Of a stretch of DNA of 64,000 bases, positions 1 to 22,948 are shown in pieces; the stretch's first letter is position 1, and every line of letters begins with the position of its first letter. The stretch is from assembly GCF_022846255.1 (NCBI RefSeq), contig NZ_AP025682.1. One strand, given 5' to 3'. The stretch comes from Escherichia coli. GTDB taxonomy: Bacteria > Pseudomonadota > Gammaproteobacteria > Enterobacterales > Enterobacteriaceae. Made by a program: the position numbers and the translations under genes. The notes under the pieces were generated by a model, which was given only the letters and a program-made list of their open reading frames with translations, was not told the DNA's origin and ran no database searches.

Positions 1-708
1 GCGGTAATCACCCGCTTTGGTGTCGCGCCCTTTATCTGCACCCTCGGTATGATGTACGTCGCCCGTGGCTCTGCCCTGCTGTTTAATGATGGCAGCACTT
101 ACCCCAATCTCAACGGCATGGAGGCACTGGGCAACACGGGTTTCGCCACCCTTGGTTCTGGCACGTTTTTAGGCGTTTATTTGCCAATCTGGCTGATGAT
201 TGGCTTTTTGATTTTAGGCTACTGGATCACGACTAAAACGCCGCTCGGTCGTTATATCTATGCCATTGGTGGCAATGAATCTGCCGCGCGACTGGCAGGC
301 GTACCCATCGTAAAAGTCAAAGTGTTCGTCTATGCGTTCTCCGGATTATGCGCCGCATTTGTCGGTTTGATTGTTGCCTCGCAGCTGCAAACCGCTCACC
401 CAATGACCGGCAATATGTTCGAAATGGATGCTATCGGTGCCACGGTTCTTGGTGGAACTGCGCTGGCAGGTGGTCGGGGACGTGTCTCTGGCTCGATTAT
501 CGGTGCCTTTGTCATTGTCTTCCTCGCCGATGGCATGGTGATGATGGGGGTCAGTGATTTCTGGCAAATGGTCATTAAAGGCCTCGTTATCGTCACCGCC
601 GTGGTAGTCGATCAGTTCCAGCAAAAATTGCAAAACAAAGTCATTTTGATGCGTCGCCATGAAGAAAAGATGGCCGCCGCACCTGCCGTAAAACCGCTTT
701 CCAGTTAA
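1..708 (+). CDS. ABC-type sugar transporter permease, C-terminal part (5' end lies outside the window)
   Basis: Frame 1 is open from position 1 to the TAA at 706-708. Hydrophobic TM-rich protein with an RbsC/AraH-family-like C-terminal region. Not present at this position in K-12 as recalled. Confidence 0.7.
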   Translation, partial: AVITRFGVAPFICTLGMMYVARGSALLFNDGSTYPNLNGMEALGNTGFATLGSGTFLGVYLPIWLMIGFLILGYWITTKTPLGRYIYAIGGNESAARLAGVPIVKVKVFVYAFSGLCAAFVGLIVASQLQTAHPMTGNMFEMDAIGATVLGGTALAGGRGRVSGSIIGAFVIVFLADGMVMMGVSDFWQMVIKGLVIVTAVVVDQFQQKLQNKVILMRRHEEKMAAAPAVKPLSS

Positions 709-721
709 TTAACATCATTCC

Positions 722-743
722 GCCGGGCATTAAATTGCCCGGC
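722..743 (+). terminator. GC-rich hairpin between permease and first dehydrogenase (gccgggca-ttaaat-tgcccggc); possible weak terminator or attenuator
   Basis: Perfect 8-bp inverted repeat seen directly; the downstream T-tract is weak (ttataca). Confidence 0.3.
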
Positions 744-761
744 TTATACAGGGGAAAAAAT

Positions 762-1559
762 ATGCAACGTAATTTTCAGGGTAAGACTGTAGTTATTACC
801 GGGGCATGCCGGGGAATTGGGGCCGGGATCGCTGAACGCTTCGCCCGCGATGGCGCAAATCTGGTGATGGTTTCTAACGCTGCACGCGTGCATGAAACTG
901 CTGAGCAACTGCGCCAATGTTATCAGGCTGACATTTTGTCATTAGAAGTCGATGTGACAGATGAAGCGCAAGTACAGGCACTCTATGAACAAGCGGCTGC
1001 ACGTTTTGGCAGCATCGATGTTTCCATTCAGAATGCAGGCATTATCACCATCGATTATTTTGATCGAATGCCGGCTGCTGATTTCGAAAAAGTGCTGGCG
1101 GTGAACACTACGGCAGTCTGGCTCTGCTGCCGGGAAGCAGCCAAATATATGGTGAAACAAAATCACGGCTGCCTGATCAACACCTCTTCTGGCCAGGGAC
1201 GTCAGGGGTTTATCTATACCCCACACTATGCAGCCAGCAAAATGGGTGTGATCGGCATTACGCAAAGCCTGGCGCACGAGTTAGCGCAGTGGAATATCAC
1301 TGTTAACGCCTTCTGCCCTGGTATTATCGAAAGCGAAATGTGGGACTACAACGACCGCGTATGGGGAGAAATTCTCAGTACCGATGACAAGCGTTATGGC
1401 AAAGGCGAGCTTATGGCGGAATGGGTGGAAGGTATTCCGATGAAGCGTGCCGGTAAACCTGAAGATGTTGCCGGACTGGTTGCCTTCCTCGCCTCTGACG
1501 ATGCGCGTTATCTCACCGGTCAAACCATCAACATCGACGGCGGCCTGATTATGTCGTAA
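762..1559 (+). CDS. Short-chain dehydrogenase/reductase, sorbitol-6-phosphate dehydrogenase-like
   Basis: ATG at 762 preceded by a purine-rich RBS (cagggga). Rossmann motif TGACRGIGAG and catalytic Y-x3-K (YAASK). The ORF-track start at 735 lies inside the upstream hairpin and is unlikely. Confidence 0.8.
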   Translation: MQRNFQGKTVVITGACRGIGAGIAERFARDGANLVMVSNAARVHETAEQLRQCYQADILSLEVDVTDEAQVQALYEQAAARFGSIDVSIQNAGIITIDYFDRMPAADFEKVLAVNTTAVWLCCREAAKYMVKQNHGCLINTSSGQGRQGFIYTPHYAASKMGVIGITQSLAHELAQWNITVNAFCPGIIESEMWDYNDRVWGEILSTDDKRYGKGELMAEWVEGIPMKRAGKPEDVAGLVAFLASDDARYLTGQTINIDGGLIMS

Positions 1560-1591
1560 TGCCCCTGCGGGCTACTAAGAGAGATATCAAA

Positions 1592-2377
1592 ATGATCGCA
1601 AAAGATTTTGCTCAACAATTGTTTGATCTCCACGATCGCGTCGCCTTTGTCACTGGCGCAGGTAGCGGTATCGGACAAATGATCGCTCTGGCTTTAGCCA
1701 GCGCAGGCGCACGAGTGGTGTGTTTTGATCTACGGGAAGATGGCGGACTCAAAGAGACGGTTAATCATATCGAAGCACTTGGCGGACAAGCCTTGTATTA
1801 CACGGGCGATGTTCGGGAATTGAGAGATCTTCGCGCAGCAGTCGCTCTGGCAAAAACACATTTTGGTCGTCTGGATATTGCCGTAAACGCCGCTGGAATC
1901 GCTAACGCAAACCCGGCGCTGGAGATGGAAAGCGAGCAATGGCAACGCGTTATCGATATCAACCTGACTGGTGTGTGGAATTCCTGTAAGGCGGAAGCCG
2001 AGTTAATGGTAGAGAACGGAGGCGGCTCGATTATAAATATTGCGTCAATGTCCGGGATTATCGTCAATCGCGGTCTGGAACAGGCTCACTACAACAGCTC
2101 CAAAGCAGGCGTGATTCATTTATCTAAAAGTCTTGCGATGGAATGGGTGAGTAAAGGGATCCGTGTGAACTCAATCAGTCCAGGATATACCGCAACACCA
2201 ATGAATACCCGACCTGAAATGGTGCATCAGACTCGGGAGTTTGAAATCCAGACGCCGATTCAGCGGATGGCGAAAGTGGAAGAGATGGCGGGTCCAGCGC
2301 TGTTCCTTGCCAGCGATGCGGCGTCGTTCTGCACTGGTGTTGATCTGGTGGTCGATGGTGGTTTTGTCTGCTGGTAA
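1592..2377 (+). CDS. Short-chain dehydrogenase/reductase, gluconate 5-dehydrogenase / KduD-like
   Basis: ATG at 1592 with RBS aagagag upstream. Motif TGAGSGIG and catalytic Y-x3-K (YNSSK). The ORF-track start at 1559 overlaps the stop of the upstream gene. Confidence 0.8.
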   Translation: MIAKDFAQQLFDLHDRVAFVTGAGSGIGQMIALALASAGARVVCFDLREDGGLKETVNHIEALGGQALYYTGDVRELRDLRAAVALAKTHFGRLDIAVNAAGIANANPALEMESEQWQRVIDINLTGVWNSCKAEAELMVENGGGSIINIASMSGIIVNRGLEQAHYNSSKAGVIHLSKSLAMEWVSKGIRVNSISPGYTATPMNTRPEMVHQTREFEIQTPIQRMAKVEEMAGPALFLASDAASFCTGVDLVVDGGFVCW

Positions 2378-2486
2378 AAATGGTTTCGCCCGCAGCCATC
2401 ACTGACCGCGGGCGAAAGTGTAAAGCAGGTGCCTTACCACCCTGACCTGACAACCGGATATGCGGGGATTGCTCCCCGCACAACGG

Positions 2487-2639
2487 CTACTTCTTCGGTT
2501 CGTAAGCGAGAACAACCTTAAACTCAATATTACGTTCCTTTACGGTAAACTCACACAGCGAGTCTCCGACCAGAAGCGTAAATCCCAGCACCGTTAAACA
2601 CAGCACTATGACTGCCACAAGGGCATATTTCGTCAGCAT
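2487..2639 (-). CDS. hokE: Hok-family type I toxin (50 aa), copy 1
   Basis: Protein [50 protein letters not shown] matches the Hok/Gef family; single TM helix; cat (ATG on the reverse strand) at 2637-2639. Confidence 0.85.
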
Positions 2640-2739
2640 GTTTATATTGCCTCCATGCGAAGAAGGGACTACCATCCAAATTGTTCAGGTTTGGGTAGGT
2701 AGCCCCAAGGTTGATAGAAATATCGTCCTGGGGCTTCAT
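2551..2739 (-). CDS. mokE: mok (modulator of killing) leader ORF overlapping the hok start, copy 1
   Basis: 62-aa ORF in a different frame overlapping the 5' end of hok, the standard hok/sok architecture; translation not verifiable from sequence. Confidence 0.5.
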
Positions 2740-2990
2740 CTTTCCAGACCTCAGAGTAAACCTGAAACCGGAAAGCTTCAGGCACCCGCAGTTATCTTAC
2801 CCTTCCTTAGCAAAATAGCTGTTTATTTATACAGTGAGTCCTGTTTAGGACTTTTCACCTGTATTATCGCCCATGCCAGTAAAACGAAATCGCCCGCAGC
2901 CATCTCTGACTGCGGGCGAAAGTGTAAAGCAGGTGCCTTACCATCCTGACCTGACAACCGGATATGCGGGGATTACTCCCCGCACAACGG

Positions 2991-3143
2991 CTACTTCTTC
3001 GGTTCGTAAGCGAGAACAGCCTTAAACTCAATATTACGTTCCTTTACGGTAAACTCACACAGCGAGTCTCCGACCAGAAGCGTAAATCCCAGCACCGTTA
3101 AACACAGCACTATGACTGCCACAAGGGCATATTTCGTCAGCAT
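2991..3143 (-). CDS. hokE: Hok-family type I toxin (50 aa), copy 2
   Basis: Same as copy 1 except Val to Ala at residue 42 (EFKAV); this version matches the K-12 HokE sequence as recalled. Confidence 0.85.
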
Positions 3144-3243
3144 GTTTATATTGCCTCCATGCGAAGAAGGGACTACCATCCAAATTGTTCAGGTTTGGGT
3201 AGGTAGCCCCAGGGTTGATAGAAATATCGTCCTGGGGCTTCAT
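3055..3243 (-). CDS. mokE: mok leader ORF, copy 2
   Basis: Overlapping ORF as in copy 1, with a Leu to Pro difference at residue 11. Confidence 0.5.
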
Positions 3244-3579
3244 CTTTCCAGACCTCAGAGTAAACCTGAAACCGGAAAGCTTCAGGCACCCGCAGTTATC
3301 TTACCCTTCCTTAGCAAAATAGCTGTTTATTTATACAGTGAGTCCTGTTTCGGACTTCTCATTTAATCAACTGAAGCTGAACCCGTTTTTTTCTGCATGC
3401 CTCAATCGTCAAAATTCTTCGCCGCCAGCCAGCTCTGCCATAACTTGTCACATTGCAAAAGTAGCCAAATTGCTTCAGTCACAATCAGTTCTCCATCACC
3501 AAAAAAAGAAACATTCCAGAACTTCCGCATCTCACCCAGCCGCTCCCACTTCTATACTGAATAGAAAACGCCAACATAA

Positions 3580-4707
<1,128 letters not shown>

Positions 4708-4772
4708 GTCGGGAATTGCCTTACAGAAGAATATCCCTGACAATGGTGTTTTAACTTACATTTAACAATGTT

Positions 4773-5021
4773 ATGAAACACCCTTTAGAAACCTTGACCA
4801 CCGCAGCAGGCATTTTGCTGATGGCTTTCCTCTCTTGCCTGCTGCTGCCCGCCCCCGCACTGGGGCTGACGCTGGCACAAAAACTGGTGACCACGTTCCA
4901 TCTGATGGATCTTAGCCAGCTTTACACGTTATTGTTTTGTCTGTGGTTTTTAGTGCTGGGCGCTATTGAGTATTTTGTTCTACGCTTTATCTGGCGACGC
5001 TGGTTCTCGCTGGCGGATTAA
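4773..5021 (+). CDS. ybdJ: Small inner-membrane protein YbdJ
   Basis: 82-aa product with two hydrophobic segments; conserved position between ybdK and ybdF. Confidence 0.8.
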
Positions 5022-5085
5022 ACGTCGATTATCGCCGAACTTCGCGGCATACTTTGCTTATTCTCCTTCGCCTAAAGGAACATTT

Positions 5086-5469
5086 ATGGATAAGCAATCA
5101 CTGCACGAAACGGCGAAACGCCTGGCTCTTGAGTTACCCTTTGTCGAGCTTTGCTGGCCTTTTGGCCCGGAGTTCGATGTTTTTAAAATTGGCGGCAAGA
5201 TTTTTATGCTGTCGTCGGAGCTGCGCGGCGTCCCCTTTATCAATCTGAAGTCCGATCCACAAAAATCCCTGCTAAATCAGCAAATATACCCAAGCATCAA
5301 GCCAGGGTATCACATGAATAAAAAGCACTGGATTTCGGTGTATCCCGGCGAGGAAATCTCCGAAGCGTTACTTCGCGATCTGATCAACGATTCGTGGAAT
5401 CTGGTGGTTGATGGTCTGGCTAAACGCGATCAAAAACGACTGCGTCCTGACTCAACCGTAAATCAATAG
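5086..5469 (+). CDS. ybdF: MmcQ/YjbR-family protein YbdF
   Basis: ATG at 5086 preceded by RBS aaagga. The ORF-track start at 4966 would overlap ybdJ and is rejected. Confidence 0.85.
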
Positions 5470-5547
5470 CGCATTTTTCTCGCTTACCATTTCATCTCGA
5501 TCCTTGTAATCTGCTGGCACGCAAAATTACTTTCACATGGAGTCTTT

Positions 5548-6201
5548 ATGGATATCATTTCTGTCGCCTTAAAGCGTCATTCCACTAAGGCATTTGATGC
5601 CAGCAAAAAACTTACCCCGGAACAGGCCGAGCAGATCAAAACTCTACTGCAATACAGCCCATCCAGCACCAACTCCCAGCCGTGGCATTTTATTGTTGCC
5701 AGCACGGAAGAAGGTAAAGCGCGTGTTGCCAAATCCGCTGCCGATAATTACGTGTTCAACGAGCGTAAAATGCTTGATGCCTCGCACGTCGTGGTGTTCT
5801 GTGCAAAAACCGCGATGGACGATGCCTGGCTAAAGCTGGTTGTTGACCAGGAAGATGCCGATGGCCGCTTTGCCACGCCGGAAGCGAAAGCCGCGAACGA
5901 TAAAGGTCGCAAGTTCTTCGCCGATATGCACCGTAAAGATCTGCATGATGATGCAGAGTGGATGGCAAAACAGGTTTATCTCAACGTCGGTAACTTCCTG
6001 CTGGGCGTGGCGGCGCTGGGTCTGGACGCGGTGCCCATCGAAGGTTTTGACGCCGCCATCCTCGATGAAGAATTTGGTCTGAAAGAGAAAGGCTACACCA
6101 GTCTGGTGGTTGTTCCGGTGGGTCATCACAGCGTTGAAGATTTTAACGCTACGCTGCCGAAATCTCGTCTGCCGCAAAACATTACCTTAACCGAAGTGTA
6201 A
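5548..6201 (+). CDS. nfsB: Oxygen-insensitive NAD(P)H nitroreductase NfsB
   Basis: 217-aa product matches NfsB ([17 protein letters not shown]...). Confidence 0.95.
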
Positions 6202-6210
6202 TTCTCCCTT

Positions 6211-6233
6211 GCCGGGCATCTGCCCGGCTATTT
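6211..6233 (+). terminator. Hairpin after nfsB (gccgggca-tc-tgcccggc followed by tattt)
   Basis: Inverted repeat 10 bp after the nfsB stop with a short T-run. Confidence 0.4.
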
Positions 6234-6260
6234 CCCCTCAGATTCTCCTGATTTGCATAA

Positions 6261-7556
<1,296 letters not shown>

Positions 7557-7565
7557 TTAAAAAAA

Positions 7566-7597
7566 CCGCTCTCATCGAATGGATGAGAGCGGCTTTC
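7566..7597. terminator. Bidirectional hairpin terminator between convergent ybdG and pheP
   Basis: 11-bp stem ccgctctcatc / gatgagagcgg, flanked by an A-run on one side and ttt on the other. Confidence 0.55.
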
Positions 7598-7613
7598 AGA
7601 TTGTTGACATCAT

Positions 7614-7695
<82 letters not shown>

Positions 7696-19989: not shown

Positions 19990-22948
19990 CCTTAATCGCG
20001 TCATCGGATGGTCTGGTTTACTGCTGACATCTTTATTGAGTACCAGCGCACTCGCAGACAATATCGGCACCAGCGCAGAAGAGCTGGGGCTGAGCGATTA
20101 TCGCCATTTTGTTATTTATCCCCGTCTCGATAAGGCGCTGAAGGCACAGAAAAATAACGACGAAGCAACCGCCATCCGCGAATTTGAATATATACACCAG
20201 CAGGTGCCGGATAATATTCCGCTGACTTTATACCTTGCGGAAGCCTATCGCCATTTTGGTCATGATGACCGGGCGCGGCTGTTGCTTGAGGATCAACTGA
20301 AACGTCACCCTGGAGATGATCGGCTTGAGCGCAGTCTGGCGGCTATTCCTGTTGAAGTGAAAAGCGTTACGACTGTTGAAGAACTGCTTGCCCAGCAAAA
20401 AGCGTGCGATGCTGCGCCGACCCTGCGTTGTCGCAGTGAAGTCGGGCAGAATGCCCTGCGGCTGGCACAATTACCTGTCGCCAGAGCGCAACTGAACGAT
20501 GCGACGTTTGCTGCATCGCCGGAAGGAAAAACGCTGCGAACCGATCTGCTGCAACGCGCAATCTACCTGAAACAATGGTCCCAGGCAGATACGCTATACA
20601 ATGAAGCACGCCAGCAGAACACATTAAGCGCGGCAGAACGCCGTCAGTGGTTTGACGTGCTTCTTGCCGGGCAGCTGGACGATCGGATCCTGGCGCTGCA
20701 ATCACAGGGGATCTTCACCGATCCTCAGTCATATATTACTTACGCGACCGCGCTGGCTTATCGTGGCGAAAAAGCACGCCTCCAGCATTATCTCATTGAA
20801 AATAAGCCGCTGTTTACCACGGACGCACAAGAGAAAAGTTGGCTCTATCTGTTATCTAAATACAGCGCCAACCCCGTTCAGGCGTTGGCGAATTATACGG
20901 TACAGTTTGCCGACAACCGCCAGTATGTTGTTGGCGCGACGCTACCGGTGCTGTTAAAAGAAGGTCAGTACGGCGCAGCGCAAAAACTGCTCGCCACCCT
21001 CCCCGCCAATGAAATGCTTGAGGAGCGTTATACCGTTAGCGTAGCGACCCATAACAAGGCTGAAGCTCTGCGTCTGGCACGATTGCTGTATCAGCAAGAA
21101 CCGGCAAATCTTACCCGCCTGGATCAACTGACCTGGCAACTGATGCAGAACGAACAGTCACGCGAAGCTGCCGATTTATTGCTGCAACGCTATCCTTTCC
21201 AGGGCGATGCGCGTGTCAGCCAGACTTTAATGGCGCGACTGGCGTCTCTGCTGGAAAGTCATCCTTACCTGGCAACGCCGGCGAAGGTGGCGATTTTATC
21301 GAAACCCTTACCGCTGGCGGAGCAACGTCAGTGGCAAAGTCAGTTGCCGGGTATTGCAGATAATTGCCCGGCAATAGTTCGCTTGCTGGGCGATATGTCG
21401 CCTTCCTACGATGCCGCCGCCTGGAACCGTCTGGCAAAGTGTTATCGGGACACGCTACCCGGTGTGGCGTTGTATGCATGGCTTCAGGCCGAACAACGAC
21501 AACCGAACGCCTGGCAACATCGTGCGGTAGCCTATCAGGCGTATCAGGTTGAGGACTACGCCACCGCACTGGCGGCATGGCAGAAAATCAGTCTTCACGA
21601 CATGAGCAATGAGGATCTGCTTGCTGCTGCCAATACCGCCCAGGCGGCAGGAAATGGTGCGGCTCGCGATCGCTGGCTTCAGCAGGCAGAACAACGTGGG
21701 CTGGGAAACAATGCCCTCTACTGGTGGCTGCATGCGCAACGTTACATTCATGGTCAGCCGGAACTCGCACTGAACGATCTCACGCGCTCAATCAATATTG
21801 CGCCTTCTGCCAACGCTTACGTTGCGCGGGCAACAATTTATCGCCAACGTCATAATATCCCGGCGGCGGTGAGTGATTTGCGCGCCGCGCTGGAACTGGA
21901 ACCGAATAATAGCAACACCCAGGCAGCGCTTGGTTACGCCTTGTGGGATAGCGGTGATATCGCACAGTCGCGGGAAATGCTCGAACAGGCGCATAAAGGG
22001 CTACCGGACGATCCGGCACTTATCCGACAACTGGCCTACGTGAACCAGCGTCTGGATGACATGCCTGCGACGCAGCACTACGCCCGGCTGGTGATTGATG
22101 ACATTGATAATCAGGCGCTGATAACCCCACTGACCCCAGAGCAAAATCAGCAACGCTTCAATTTCCGCCGTCTGCATGAGGAGGTCGGTCGCCGCTGGAC
22201 GTTCAGTTTCGATTCTTCTATCGGCTTGCGTTCCGGCGCAATGAGTACCGCTAACAATAATGTCGGCGGCGCAGCGCCAGGGAAAAGCTATCGTAGCTAC
22301 GGGCAACTGGAAGCCGAGTATCGCATCGGACGCAATATGCTGCTGGAAGGCGACCTGCTCTCGGTTTACAGCCGTGTATTTGCCGATACCGGAGAAAACG
22401 GGGTGATGATGCCGGTGAAAAATCCGATGTCCGGCACCGGTCTGCGCTGGAAGCCGCTGCGCGATCAGATCTTTTTCCTCACCGTCGAACAGCAGTTGCC
22501 GCTGAACGGCCAAAATGGTGCATCCGATACCATGCTGCGCGCCAGCGCCTCATTCTTTAATGGCGGCAAATACAGCGACGAATGGCACCCGAACGGTTCA
22601 GGCTGGTTTGCCCAAAACCTGTACCTCGATGCAGCGCAATATATCCGCCAGGATATTCAGGCGTGGACGGCAGATTATCGCGTCAGCTGGCATCAGAAGG
22701 TAGCTAACGGACAGACTATTGAGCCTTACGCTCACGTTCAGGACAACGGCTATCGTGATAAAGGCACTCAGGGCGCGCAGCTTGGCGGTGTCGGGGTCCG
22801 CTGGAATATCTGGACCGGCGAGACGCACTACGACGCCTGGCCGCACAAAGTCAGTCTCGGCGTCGAGTATCAACATACCTTTAAGGCGATTAATCAACGT
22901 AACGGAGAGCGCAACAATGCGTTTCTCACCATTGGAGTGCACTGGTAA
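19976..22948 (+). CDS. nfrA: NfrA, outer-membrane phage N4 receptor (TPR-rich)
   Basis: Start at ATG 19976 (MKENNLNRVIGWSGL...), overlapping the nfrB 3' end by 14 nt; the ORF track starts 7 codons earlier. Confidence 0.92.
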   Translation: MKENNLNRVIGWSGLLLTSLLSTSALADNIGTSAEELGLSDYRHFVIYPRLDKALKAQKNNDEATAIREFEYIHQQVPDNIPLTLYLAEAYRHFGHDDRARLLLEDQLKRHPGDDRLERSLAAIPVEVKSVTTVEELLAQQKACDAAPTLRCRSEVGQNALRLAQLPVARAQLNDATFAASPEGKTLRTDLLQRAIYLKQWSQADTLYNEARQQNTLSAAERRQWFDVLLAGQLDDRILALQSQGIFTDPQSYITYATALAYRGEKARLQHYLIENKPLFTTDAQEKSWLYLLSKYSANPVQALANYTVQFADNRQYVVGATLPVLLKEGQYGAAQKLLATLPANEMLEERYTVSVATHNKAEALRLARLLYQQEPANLTRLDQLTWQLMQNEQSREAADLLLQRYPFQGDARVSQTLMARLASLLESHPYLATPAKVAILSKPLPLAEQRQWQSQLPGIADNCPAIVRLLGDMSPSYDAAAWNRLAKCYRDTLPGVALYAWLQAEQRQPNAWQHRAVAYQAYQVEDYATALAAWQKISLHDMSNEDLLAAANTAQAAGNGAARDRWLQQAEQRGLGNNALYWWLHAQRYIHGQPELALNDLTRSINIAPSANAYVARATIYRQRHNIPAAVSDLRAALELEPNNSNTQAALGYALWDSGDIAQSREMLEQAHKGLPDDPALIRQLAYVNQRLDDMPATQHYARLVIDDIDNQALITPLTPEQNQQRFNFRRLHEEVGRRWTFSFDSSIGLRSGAMSTANNNVGGAAPGKSYRSYGQLEAEYRIGRNMLLEGDLLSVYSRVFADTGENGVMMPVKNPMSGTGLRWKPLRDQIFFLTVEQQLPLNGQNGASDTMLRASASFFNGGKYSDEWHPNGSGWFAQNLYLDAAQYIRQDIQAWTADYRVSWHQKVANGQTIEPYAHVQDNGYRDKGTQGAQLGGVGVRWNIWTGETHYDAWPHKVSLGVEYQHTFKAINQRNGERNNAFLTIGVHW

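Follow-up and report, generated by a model that had tools for sequence, protein, structure and literature searches.

Stem-loops at gene ends and between cistrons

Intercistronic REP hairpins in transporter operons act as barriers to 3′ exonucleases and thereby give higher mRNA levels of the gene upstream. REP/BIME elements are imperfect palindromes of ~35 nucleotides (nts). A second class of gene-end hairpin, the intrinsic terminator, is exemplified in Escherichia coli K-12 by those of the thr operon, tsx and cof, in which a GC-rich stem with a GCCGG or CCGGG base stands just past the stop codon and is followed by 6–8 T. [quoted passage not shown] The two stem-loops analyzed here lie in one 64,000-nt stretch of E. 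coli chromosomal DNA (the window) and resemble each of these classes in part.

Site 1 stem-loop, 722–743, + strand: GCCGGGCA-TTAAAT-TGCCCGGC, full sequence GCCGGGCATTAAATTGCCCGGC
Site 2 stem-loop, 6211–6228, + strand: GCCGGGCA-TC-TGCCCGGC, full sequence GCCGGGCATCTGCCCGGC
ABC transporter permease gene, 3′ part, 49–708, + strand: upstream of site 1 (open reading frame; annotated in a RefSeq strain of 98.6% identity)
SDR family oxidoreductase gene, 762–1559, + strand: downstream of site 1 (open reading frame listing, annotation)
nfsB, oxygen-insensitive NAD(P)H nitroreductase, 5548–6201, + strand: upstream of site 2 (open reading frame listing, annotation)
ybdG (mscM), mechanosensitive channel gene, 6309–7556, + strand: follows site 2 in the same orientation (annotation)

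Two hairpins with the same arms

The initial annotation had pointed to hairpins with the same arms and different loops 3′ of unrelated genes, and both sequences were confirmed exactly. They are the only matches in the window to GCCGGGCA-N0–12-TGCCCGGC, and their likeness is confined to the arms, as both the loops and the flanks differ. The 8-bp arms ascribed to the pair hold for site 1, in which a UUAAAU loop sits on an 8-bp stem of GCCGGGCA and TGCCCGGC (centroid fold, −18.4 kcal/mol). At site 2 the stem is effectively 7 bp (GCCGGGC/GCCCGGC) below an AUCU loop, since the eighth pair, A-T, is impossible across a 2-nt loop; its minimum free energy is −21.3 kcal/mol (z = −4.0). Site 1 begins 14 nts 3′ of the permease stop codon, within the 53-nt spacer that separates the permease gene from the SDR gene, and site 2 begins 10 nts 3′ of the nfsB stop codon.

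Like the K-12 intrinsic terminators, both sites thus present a GC-rich stem-loop just 3′ of a gene. The similarity extends to sequence: the cof terminator (ACCGGGCA-AT-TGCCCGGT) has 7 bp of the arm common to sites 1 and 2, and the GCCGGG/CCCGGC of both sites recurs in the thrC and tsx terminators. What sets the two sites apart from these terminators is the tail. With a U-tract defined as at least 5 U in the 8 nts directly 3′ of the stem, site 1 (UUAUACAG, 3 U) and site 2 (UAUUUCCC, 4 U) both fall short, and neither was listed by a simple scan for intrinsic terminators. The resemblance to REP/BIME elements is slighter, the GCCGG...CCGGC base of 5 bp being the sole shared feature of sequence. 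Sites 1 and 2 are perfect hairpins of 18–22 nts, unlike the longer, imperfect REP palindromes; neither strand of either site carries a GCCGGATG-type core or a CTAC tail, and a covariance-model scan against Rfam 15 returned no match at 722–743 or 6211–6228 (E ≤ 1).

The hairpin at the 3′ end of nfsB

Two further features adjoin site 2.

UAUUU tail, 6229–6233, + strand: in K-12, the dominant nfsB RNA 3′ ends map to the positions equivalent to 6232 and 6233
C-rich, G-poor stretch, 6234–6273, + strand: 12 C and 4 G in 40 nts, read from the sequence

The initial annotation had proposed a terminator or RNA-stability role, to be checked by 3′-end RNA mapping, and for site 2 such a map already exists. 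K-12 Term-seq places the dominant nfsB 3′ ends at NC_000913.3 604739(−) and 604740(−) (PMC7815308, supplementary file 1), where they are classed as primary in two conditions (PMC7815308). By these coordinates the K-12 nfsB RNA ends in ...GCCCGGCUAUU(U), 4–5 nts 3′ of the site 2 stem, a signal that termination and processing alike are expected to give. Site 2 is the one of the two hairpins with a mapped RNA 3′ end in its tail, known from the K-12 literature. The published K-12 Term-seq thus shows that the 3′ end of nfsB mRNA is defined by the site 2 hairpin, which is already visible in published 3′-end maps; nfsB transcripts of the present strain would likewise end 4–5 nts past the stem.

How this end is generated admits two answers. 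As an intrinsic terminator, site 2 would be leaky at best, given its poor U-tract (UAUUUCC), the C-rich, G-poor stretch that follows and the bicyclomycin-raised read-through into ybdG. The alternative is that site 2 serves as an exonuclease-blocking stem-loop left behind after Rho-dependent termination ~100 nts downstream. A Rho termination region has been reported at K-12 604637(−) (PMC7815308, supplementary file 2). It has a Rho score of 2.55 (p = 6.5e-8) and lies ~100 nts 3′ of the site 2 hairpin, in the first part of ybdG; the score rests on 800-nt windows, too coarse to assign it to the hairpin, and bicyclomycin has indirect effects. For the 80 nts 3′ of site 2, C/G comes to 1.33 (window median, 1.10), with the 12 C and 4 G falling in the first 40 nts, and from its composition the stretch at 6234–6273 is possibly a rut-like region.

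Site 2 resembles the protective stem-loops described by Dar and Sorek (2018) in that it is stable, lacks a proper U-run and has an RNA 3′ end directly downstream, with a C-rich stretch next to it and a reported Rho region ~100 nts on. It departs from them in a tail with 4 U in 7 nts and in having a canonical intrinsic terminator as its Salmonella ortholog; moreover, a dependence of this 3′ end on Rho, and its trimming by PNPase or by RNase II, would be presumptive. On balance, a blocking stem-loop that remains after Rho termination seems somewhat more likely than a leaky intrinsic terminator.

In S. enterica, nfsB is followed by AAGCCGGAC-GCCC-GTCCGGCTT and then by a run of T6, making 8 T in a row when the last two of the stem are included, so that the T-run comes directly after the stem; its stem contains GCCGGAC/GTCCGGC, and S. 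bongori has GCCGGAT-GTCC-GTCCGGC in the same place. Both Salmonella hairpins have the outer GCCGG/CCGGC of E. coli, with A-T in place of an inner G-C pair. Citrobacter, Pseudescherichia and Trabulsiella have unrelated hairpins 3′ of nfsB.

An intercistronic stem-loop in an accessory operon

Site 1 is an intercistronic stem-loop in an accessory operon that encodes a sugar-type ABC transporter and SDR enzymes. Of 5426 E. coli genomes, 628 carry this operon, and K-12 is without the site 1 island. In its placement between cistrons of a transporter operon, site 1 is like the stabilizer hairpins of the malE-malF type. No U-tract follows the stem, a translated gene begins 19 nts later, and the sequence 3′ of the site is G-rich (C/G 0.44). 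The first two of these features suggest that site 1 would serve as a barrier to 3′ exonucleases or as a boundary of mRNA decay, perhaps with weak pausing or attenuation. Such a barrier could set the mRNA of the transporter genes at a level different from that of the dehydrogenase genes downstream, an effect known from REP and other intercistronic hairpins. A further fold, in which UUCC (718–721) pairs with the SDR Shine-Dalgarno GGAA (753–756), was set aside, as it appears only in the minimum-energy fold, has an ensemble frequency of 0.15 and is absent from the centroid.

Support for selection on the structure comes from orthologous spacers. An SDR gene ortholog of 93% identity is preceded by a hairpin of GCCGGACG-CACTGC-CGTCCGGC. 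In Enterobacter hormaechei the SDR gene follows CGGGTAC-GUAA-GUACCCG and then AUUUUC, in a spacer that has AATTAACA in common with E. coli, and in Entomohabitans the corresponding hairpin has the arms TGCCGGAG/CTCCGGCA. In Dickeya, Pantoea and Serratia there is no spacer before the SDR gene. At the site 1 position, three other lineages thus have GC-rich hairpins that differ in sequence and show compensatory pair changes, which argues that the structure itself has been selected.

This conservation also bears on the reading that site 1 has no role as RNA structure, being instead a neutral palindrome or else contributing to an internal promoter of the SDR genes. A promoter-like scan does report the site, with a −35 TTAACA at 709–714 and a −10 TAAATT at 731–736, in the loop (9 of 12 matches); in addition, no U-tract follows the stem, and the majority of genomes have lost its outermost pair, the outer G being a minority allele (80 of 628 genomes) and A standing in its place in the other 548. 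The promoter match carries little weight, as promoter-like sites in the region are fewer than in shuffles (4 versus 9.7 expected), and the three lineages that retain a hairpin with compensatory changes do not conserve the −10-like hexamer. A site 1 devoid of RNA function is accordingly judged unlikely.

A dispersed family or independent stem-loops

The initial annotation had also raised the idea of a small dispersed hairpin family. Descent of both hairpins from such a family, of mini-REP or MITE-like nature, with its members now serving as terminators, would account for the identical nominal 8-nt arms, of which 100 dinucleotide-preserving shuffles of the window gave 0 matches (GCCGGGCA-N0–12-TGCCCGGC). 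E. coli REP elements have the same GCCGG/CCGGC base, and a Nitrospinota MAG harbors a real REP-like family with exactly these arms and a CTACC tail. In E. coli, the evidence runs the other way. By BLAST with hairpin plus flank, which is blind to copies with other loops (the arms being only 8 nts), site 2 is kept 3′ of nfsB in 5321 of 5426 genomes and site 1 is found once in each of 628, always at one place per genome and hence unlike the multicopy REP/BIME elements. The proposed search for the arm sequence, run over 500 kb of K-12 (~11% of one E. coli genome), found 0 further copies, a null that gives a loose bound of at most ~28 copies per genome at 95% and is compatible with a handful elsewhere. 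Beyond the arms the likeness stops: the loops differ, neither site has a CTAC tail or an Rfam match, the Salmonella ortholog of site 2 has different inner pairs, and site 1, whose outer G is the minority allele, sits on an accessory island at a spot where other genera have different hairpins. These observations speak against a dispersed family, and origin of the two hairpins from one is very unlikely. We give just as little credence to the broader version, in which both, like many GCCGG-clamped gene-end hairpins, are decayed REP-type remnants whose shared arm is a trace of common descent.

The arms themselves are generic. Across 100,044 species genomes, GCCGGGCA-N2–10-TGCCCGGC occurs at at least 120 loci, and among the matches listed, 97 of 121 lie in loci with a GC content of at least 0.6. 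A third GCCGGG...CCCGGC site in the window, at 21346, has a 3′ half similar to that of site 1; it lies inside an open reading frame of 997 aa and was dismissed.

Conceivably, identity of the arms could have been selected, through a common trans-acting factor or pairing of the two RNAs, so as to couple nfsB with the ABC/SDR operon. Nothing other than the identity itself speaks for such coupling, which we regard as close to negligible in probability: site 1 is absent from 4798 of 5426 genomes, most strains that bear the island have another outer base there, loops and flanks differ, orthologs change their arms freely, and the arms of the two hairpins largely do not co-vary across strains.

What remains is chance, the other option that had been offered at the outset. 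Two copies in 64 kb are a large excess over shuffled sequence. Shuffled sequence is the wrong null, however, and the coincidence is unexceptional when real E. coli hairpins are the reference: among 3655 pairs of GC-rich perfect hairpins in 564 kb, 12 have a common 7-mer arm, and 6 of these 12 are unrelated chance pairs. GCCGG is the commonest 5-mer in the arms of GC-rich hairpins, and GCCGG/CCGGC their commonest stem base. The 500 kb of K-12 contain 59 GCCGG...CCGGC hairpins, REPs and many terminators among them. The aceF and map terminators, 61 kb apart and both with GCCGGC arms, are a comparable chance pair, and five GCCGGAT(G) hairpins stand after hpt, erpA, crl, fadM and htpG. By a rough estimate, about 7 GCCGGGC/GCCCGGC hairpins per genome are expected from the GCCGG-clamp class. 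Because gene-end hairpins rely so heavily on the GCCGG/CCGGC base, only two more pairs must match for the arms to agree. Sites 1 and 2 are thus very probably two independent, ordinary RNA stem-loops that evolved in place, with arms that are identical by coincidence, and chance was the right option, its odds raised by a very common stem base.

Implications

As a methodological by-product, this case indicates that shared hairpin arms in E. coli look far more significant against shuffled sequence than they are, since the stem bases of real gene-end hairpins come from a small, recurring vocabulary, above all GCCGG/CCGGC. Comparison of orthologs offers a quick way to settle descent versus convergence. 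Were the improbable REP-remnant origin nevertheless true, a considerable fraction of the gene-end stem-loops of enterobacteria would derive from mobile REPs instead of independent point mutation. The significance of the finding for E. coli itself is small: a low-priority lead is closed, and site 1 takes its place as another intercistronic stem-loop in an accessory operon.

Two hairpins with identical arms

The initial annotation described two GC-rich hairpins with the same 8-nt arms downstream of unrelated genes, and it was correct for both sequences as read from the window:

722–743: site 1, stem-loop between an ABC permease gene and an SDR gene, GCCGGGCA-TTAAAT-TGCCCGGC
6211–6228: site 2, stem-loop after nfsB, GCCGGGCA-TC-TGCCCGGC

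With a loop of 0–12 nt, the arm pair matches only these two places in the window, and nothing in 100 dinucleotide-preserving shuffles. Site 1 folds into an 8-bp stem with a 6-nt loop (centroid −18.4 kcal/mol). Because a 2-nt loop is impossible, the effective stem of site 2 is 7 bp, GCCGGGC/GCCCGGC capped by an AUCU loop (MFE −21.3 kcal/mol, z = −4.0).

The first 7 kb of the window is 98.5–98.9% identical to other E. coli chromosomes, and gene order was taken from the annotation of a near-identical RefSeq strain:

Ribose-type ABC transporter genes (binding protein, DUF2291 protein, ATPase, permease), then two SDR oxidoreductase genes
hokE/sokE, two tandem copies, after the SDR genes
ybdK, ybdJ, ybdF, nfsB and ybdG, after hokE/sokE; next pheP, on the opposite strand

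Site 1 occupies a 53-nt spacer (permease stop 708, first SDR start 762), and site 2 sits between nfsB, which stops at 6201, and ybdG, which starts at 6309. E. coli K-12 (NC_000913.3) carries site 2 unchanged and lacks the ABC/SDR island. That island (window 1–2400), beside hokE, is found in only about 11–12% of complete E. coli genomes; Enterobacterales associated with plants or insects (Dickeya, Erwinia, Pantoea, Brenneria, Sodalis) carry orthologs of its SDR at 80–88% identity, often preceded there by an FGGY sugar kinase rather than the permease. The hokE/sokE type I toxin–antitoxin locus, single-copy and adjoining IS186 in K-12, is tandemly duplicated here (2380–3300, minus strand), with two Rfam sok matches (2631–2787, 3135–3291) and near-identical long hairpins (2384–2417 and 2890–2919; 2461–2480 and 2965–2984) that, unlike sites 1 and 2, are a true paralogous pair. 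The convergent ybdG–pheP spacer (7566–7694) holds an 11-bp perfect hairpin (7566–7592) and, on the minus strand at 7599–7647, a weak match to the REP-derived RNA naRNA4 that scores 38 bits, below the gathering score of 59.5.

Convergence rather than a dispersed family

Membership in a small dispersed family, also suggested at first, was judged wrong on four lines: BLAST copy number, arm search, allele frequency and orthologs. Among 5426 complete E. coli genomes (BLAST, E ≤ 10), site 2 with its flank is found in 5321 (median, one place per genome), and all the matches listed are at nfsB; site 1 with its flank is found in 628, at exactly one place apiece, in every case in the spacer that separates permease and SDR genes. 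Of 5345 places matching the nfsB 3′ region, 20 are on plasmids, and some genomes hold up to four, so nfsB is occasionally duplicated or plasmid-borne. The arm search found no GCCGGGC/GCCCGGC hairpin in the first 500 kb of K-12; the nearest relative there is cof's canonical terminator, ACCGGGCA-AT-TGCCCGGT, which has a long T-run after it. Exact 8-bp identity is itself in the minority: of the 628 genomes with the island, 548 read ACCGGGCA at site 1, breaking the outer pair, and only 80 have the G of the window.

Orthologous positions carry different arms. After nfsB, Salmonella enterica has a textbook terminator, AAGCCGGAC-GCCC-GTCCGGCTT with more T's next, and S. bongori has GCCGGAT-GTCC-GTCCGGC; the outer GCCGG/CCGGC is common to all three species, and an inner pair that is G-C in E. 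coli is A-T in both Salmonella, a compensatory change. Unrelated structures follow nfsB in Citrobacter sedlakii, Pseudescherichia vulneris (REP-like elements) and Trabulsiella. On the SDR side, a contig with a 93%-identical SDR and the same permease upstream has, ahead of the SDR gene, GCCGGACG-CACTGC-CGTCCGGC, differing from site 1 at two inner pairs, both sides changed. Enterobacter hormaechei has CGGGTAC-GTAA-GTACCCG, then ATTTTC, in a spacer still sharing AATTAACA with E. coli; Entomohabitans has TGCCGGAG-CAGC-CTCCGGCA; and Dickeya, Pantoea and Serratia lack a spacer before the gene altogether. At each of the two loci, then, the hairpin structure is maintained although the sequence drifts, and the identical E. 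coli arms arose by convergence.

How cheap is such a coincidence? The K-12 500 kb and the window together (564 kb) hold 86 perfect, GC-rich hairpins whose stems reach 7 bp or more; of their 3655 pairs, 12 have a 7-mer arm in common. Six pairs remain as unrelated once the finding itself and true repeats (boxC-like CCCTCTCCC, the hokE duplication, one REP pair) are set aside, an underestimate because the GC filter lost stems extended by A-T pairs. The commonest arm 5-mer is GCCGG, and a direct search for GCCGG...CCGGC gave 59 sites in the K-12 500 kb and five in the window, a class that takes in REP elements and many gene-end hairpins. Compared with the K-12 annotation, the latter include:

thr operon terminator: GCCGGG...CCCGGC, then T6
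tsx terminator: GCCGGGA/TCCCGGC
aceF and map terminators: GCCGGC arms in both, 61 kb between them
Five short non-REP hairpins after hpt, erpA, crl, fadM and htpG: REP-like GCCGGAT(G) arms, differing loops

Those five may be decayed REPs or may be convergent. E. coli gene-end hairpins reuse a small set of stem bases; a shared arm is cheap because, given the 5-bp base, just two further pairs need agree. At about three hairpins per 500 kb on a GCCGGG base, and a one-in-four chance that the next pair agrees, a genome would hold on the order of seven GCCGGGC hairpins, a rough estimate compatible with the observed numbers. Chance, the other option first raised, is the one borne out. The arm is also generic, since a species-wide genome scan returned at least 120 loci, spread over very diverse bacteria that are mostly GC-rich. 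In contigs of the Nitrospinota MAG ETNP2_MAG_31 (loci L073–L083), the same arms form a real REP-like family, GGTAG-GCCGGGCA-TCT-TGCCCGGC-CGGAA or the reverse orientation (...GGA...-CTACC), with more than 10 copies on separate contigs and a CTAC-type tail resembling that of enterobacterial REP.

Function of the two stem-loops

A terminator or RNA-stability role, as initially suggested, is right for site 2, which is already present in published 3′-end maps. In K-12 the hairpin spans 604761–604744 (minus strand), and the dominant curated Term-seq ends, assigned to nfsB as its primary 3′ ends under two growth conditions, lie just after the stem at 604739(−) and 604740(−) (Adams et al., 2021, PMC7815308, supplementary file 1); the nfsB RNA therefore ends ...GCCCGGCUAUU(U). 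The tail has just four U in 8 nt, site 2 fails a simple terminator scan, and the following 40 nt are C-rich and G-poor (12 C, 4 G). A Rho termination region maps to 604637(−) (PMC7815308, supplementary file 2), at about window 6335, within the first 30 nt of ybdG; there, bicyclomycin raised downstream-to-upstream coverage from 58/168 to 240/273 (Rho score 2.55, p = 6.5e-8; PMC7815308). Dar and Sorek (2018, PMC6061677) describe Rho-dependent transcripts that end precisely just 3′ of stable stem-loops without U-runs, which shield them from 3′–5′ exonucleases, and site 2 fits this picture in its 3′ end just past the stem and its poor U-tail; the C-rich stretch and the Rho region may do so as well. 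Rho would end transcription, and the hairpin would protect the nfsB RNA. We lean slightly toward this mechanism; a leaky intrinsic terminator is nearly as probable, because the Salmonella ortholog is a canonical one. Under either mechanism, site 2 defines and stabilizes the 3′ end of the nfsB RNA and curbs read-through into ybdG.

For site 1 the same suggestion is plausible. This hairpin has no U-tract (UUAUACAG), the sequence 3′ of it is G-rich (C/G 0.44), and SDR translation starts 19 nt past it. Because structure at this position is conserved across lineages, with compensatory changes, we infer that site 1 would be an intercistronic 3′-exonuclease barrier or decay boundary, acting as REP-type intercistronic stabilizers do although not itself a REP; it may possibly be a weak attenuator.

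Against canonical intrinsic terminators, the two hairpins are a partial match, with the stem present, the U-tract absent, and a 3′ end mapped at site 2 only. Neither hairpin is a REP/BIME by copy number, length, core sequence or CTAC tail, and Rfam has no match at either site. The closest functional description of both is a gene-end or intercistronic protective stem-loop. Both hairpins are ordinary biology, and the Rho region at the start of ybdG/mscM suggests that Rho limits channel-gene expression from nfsB read-through.
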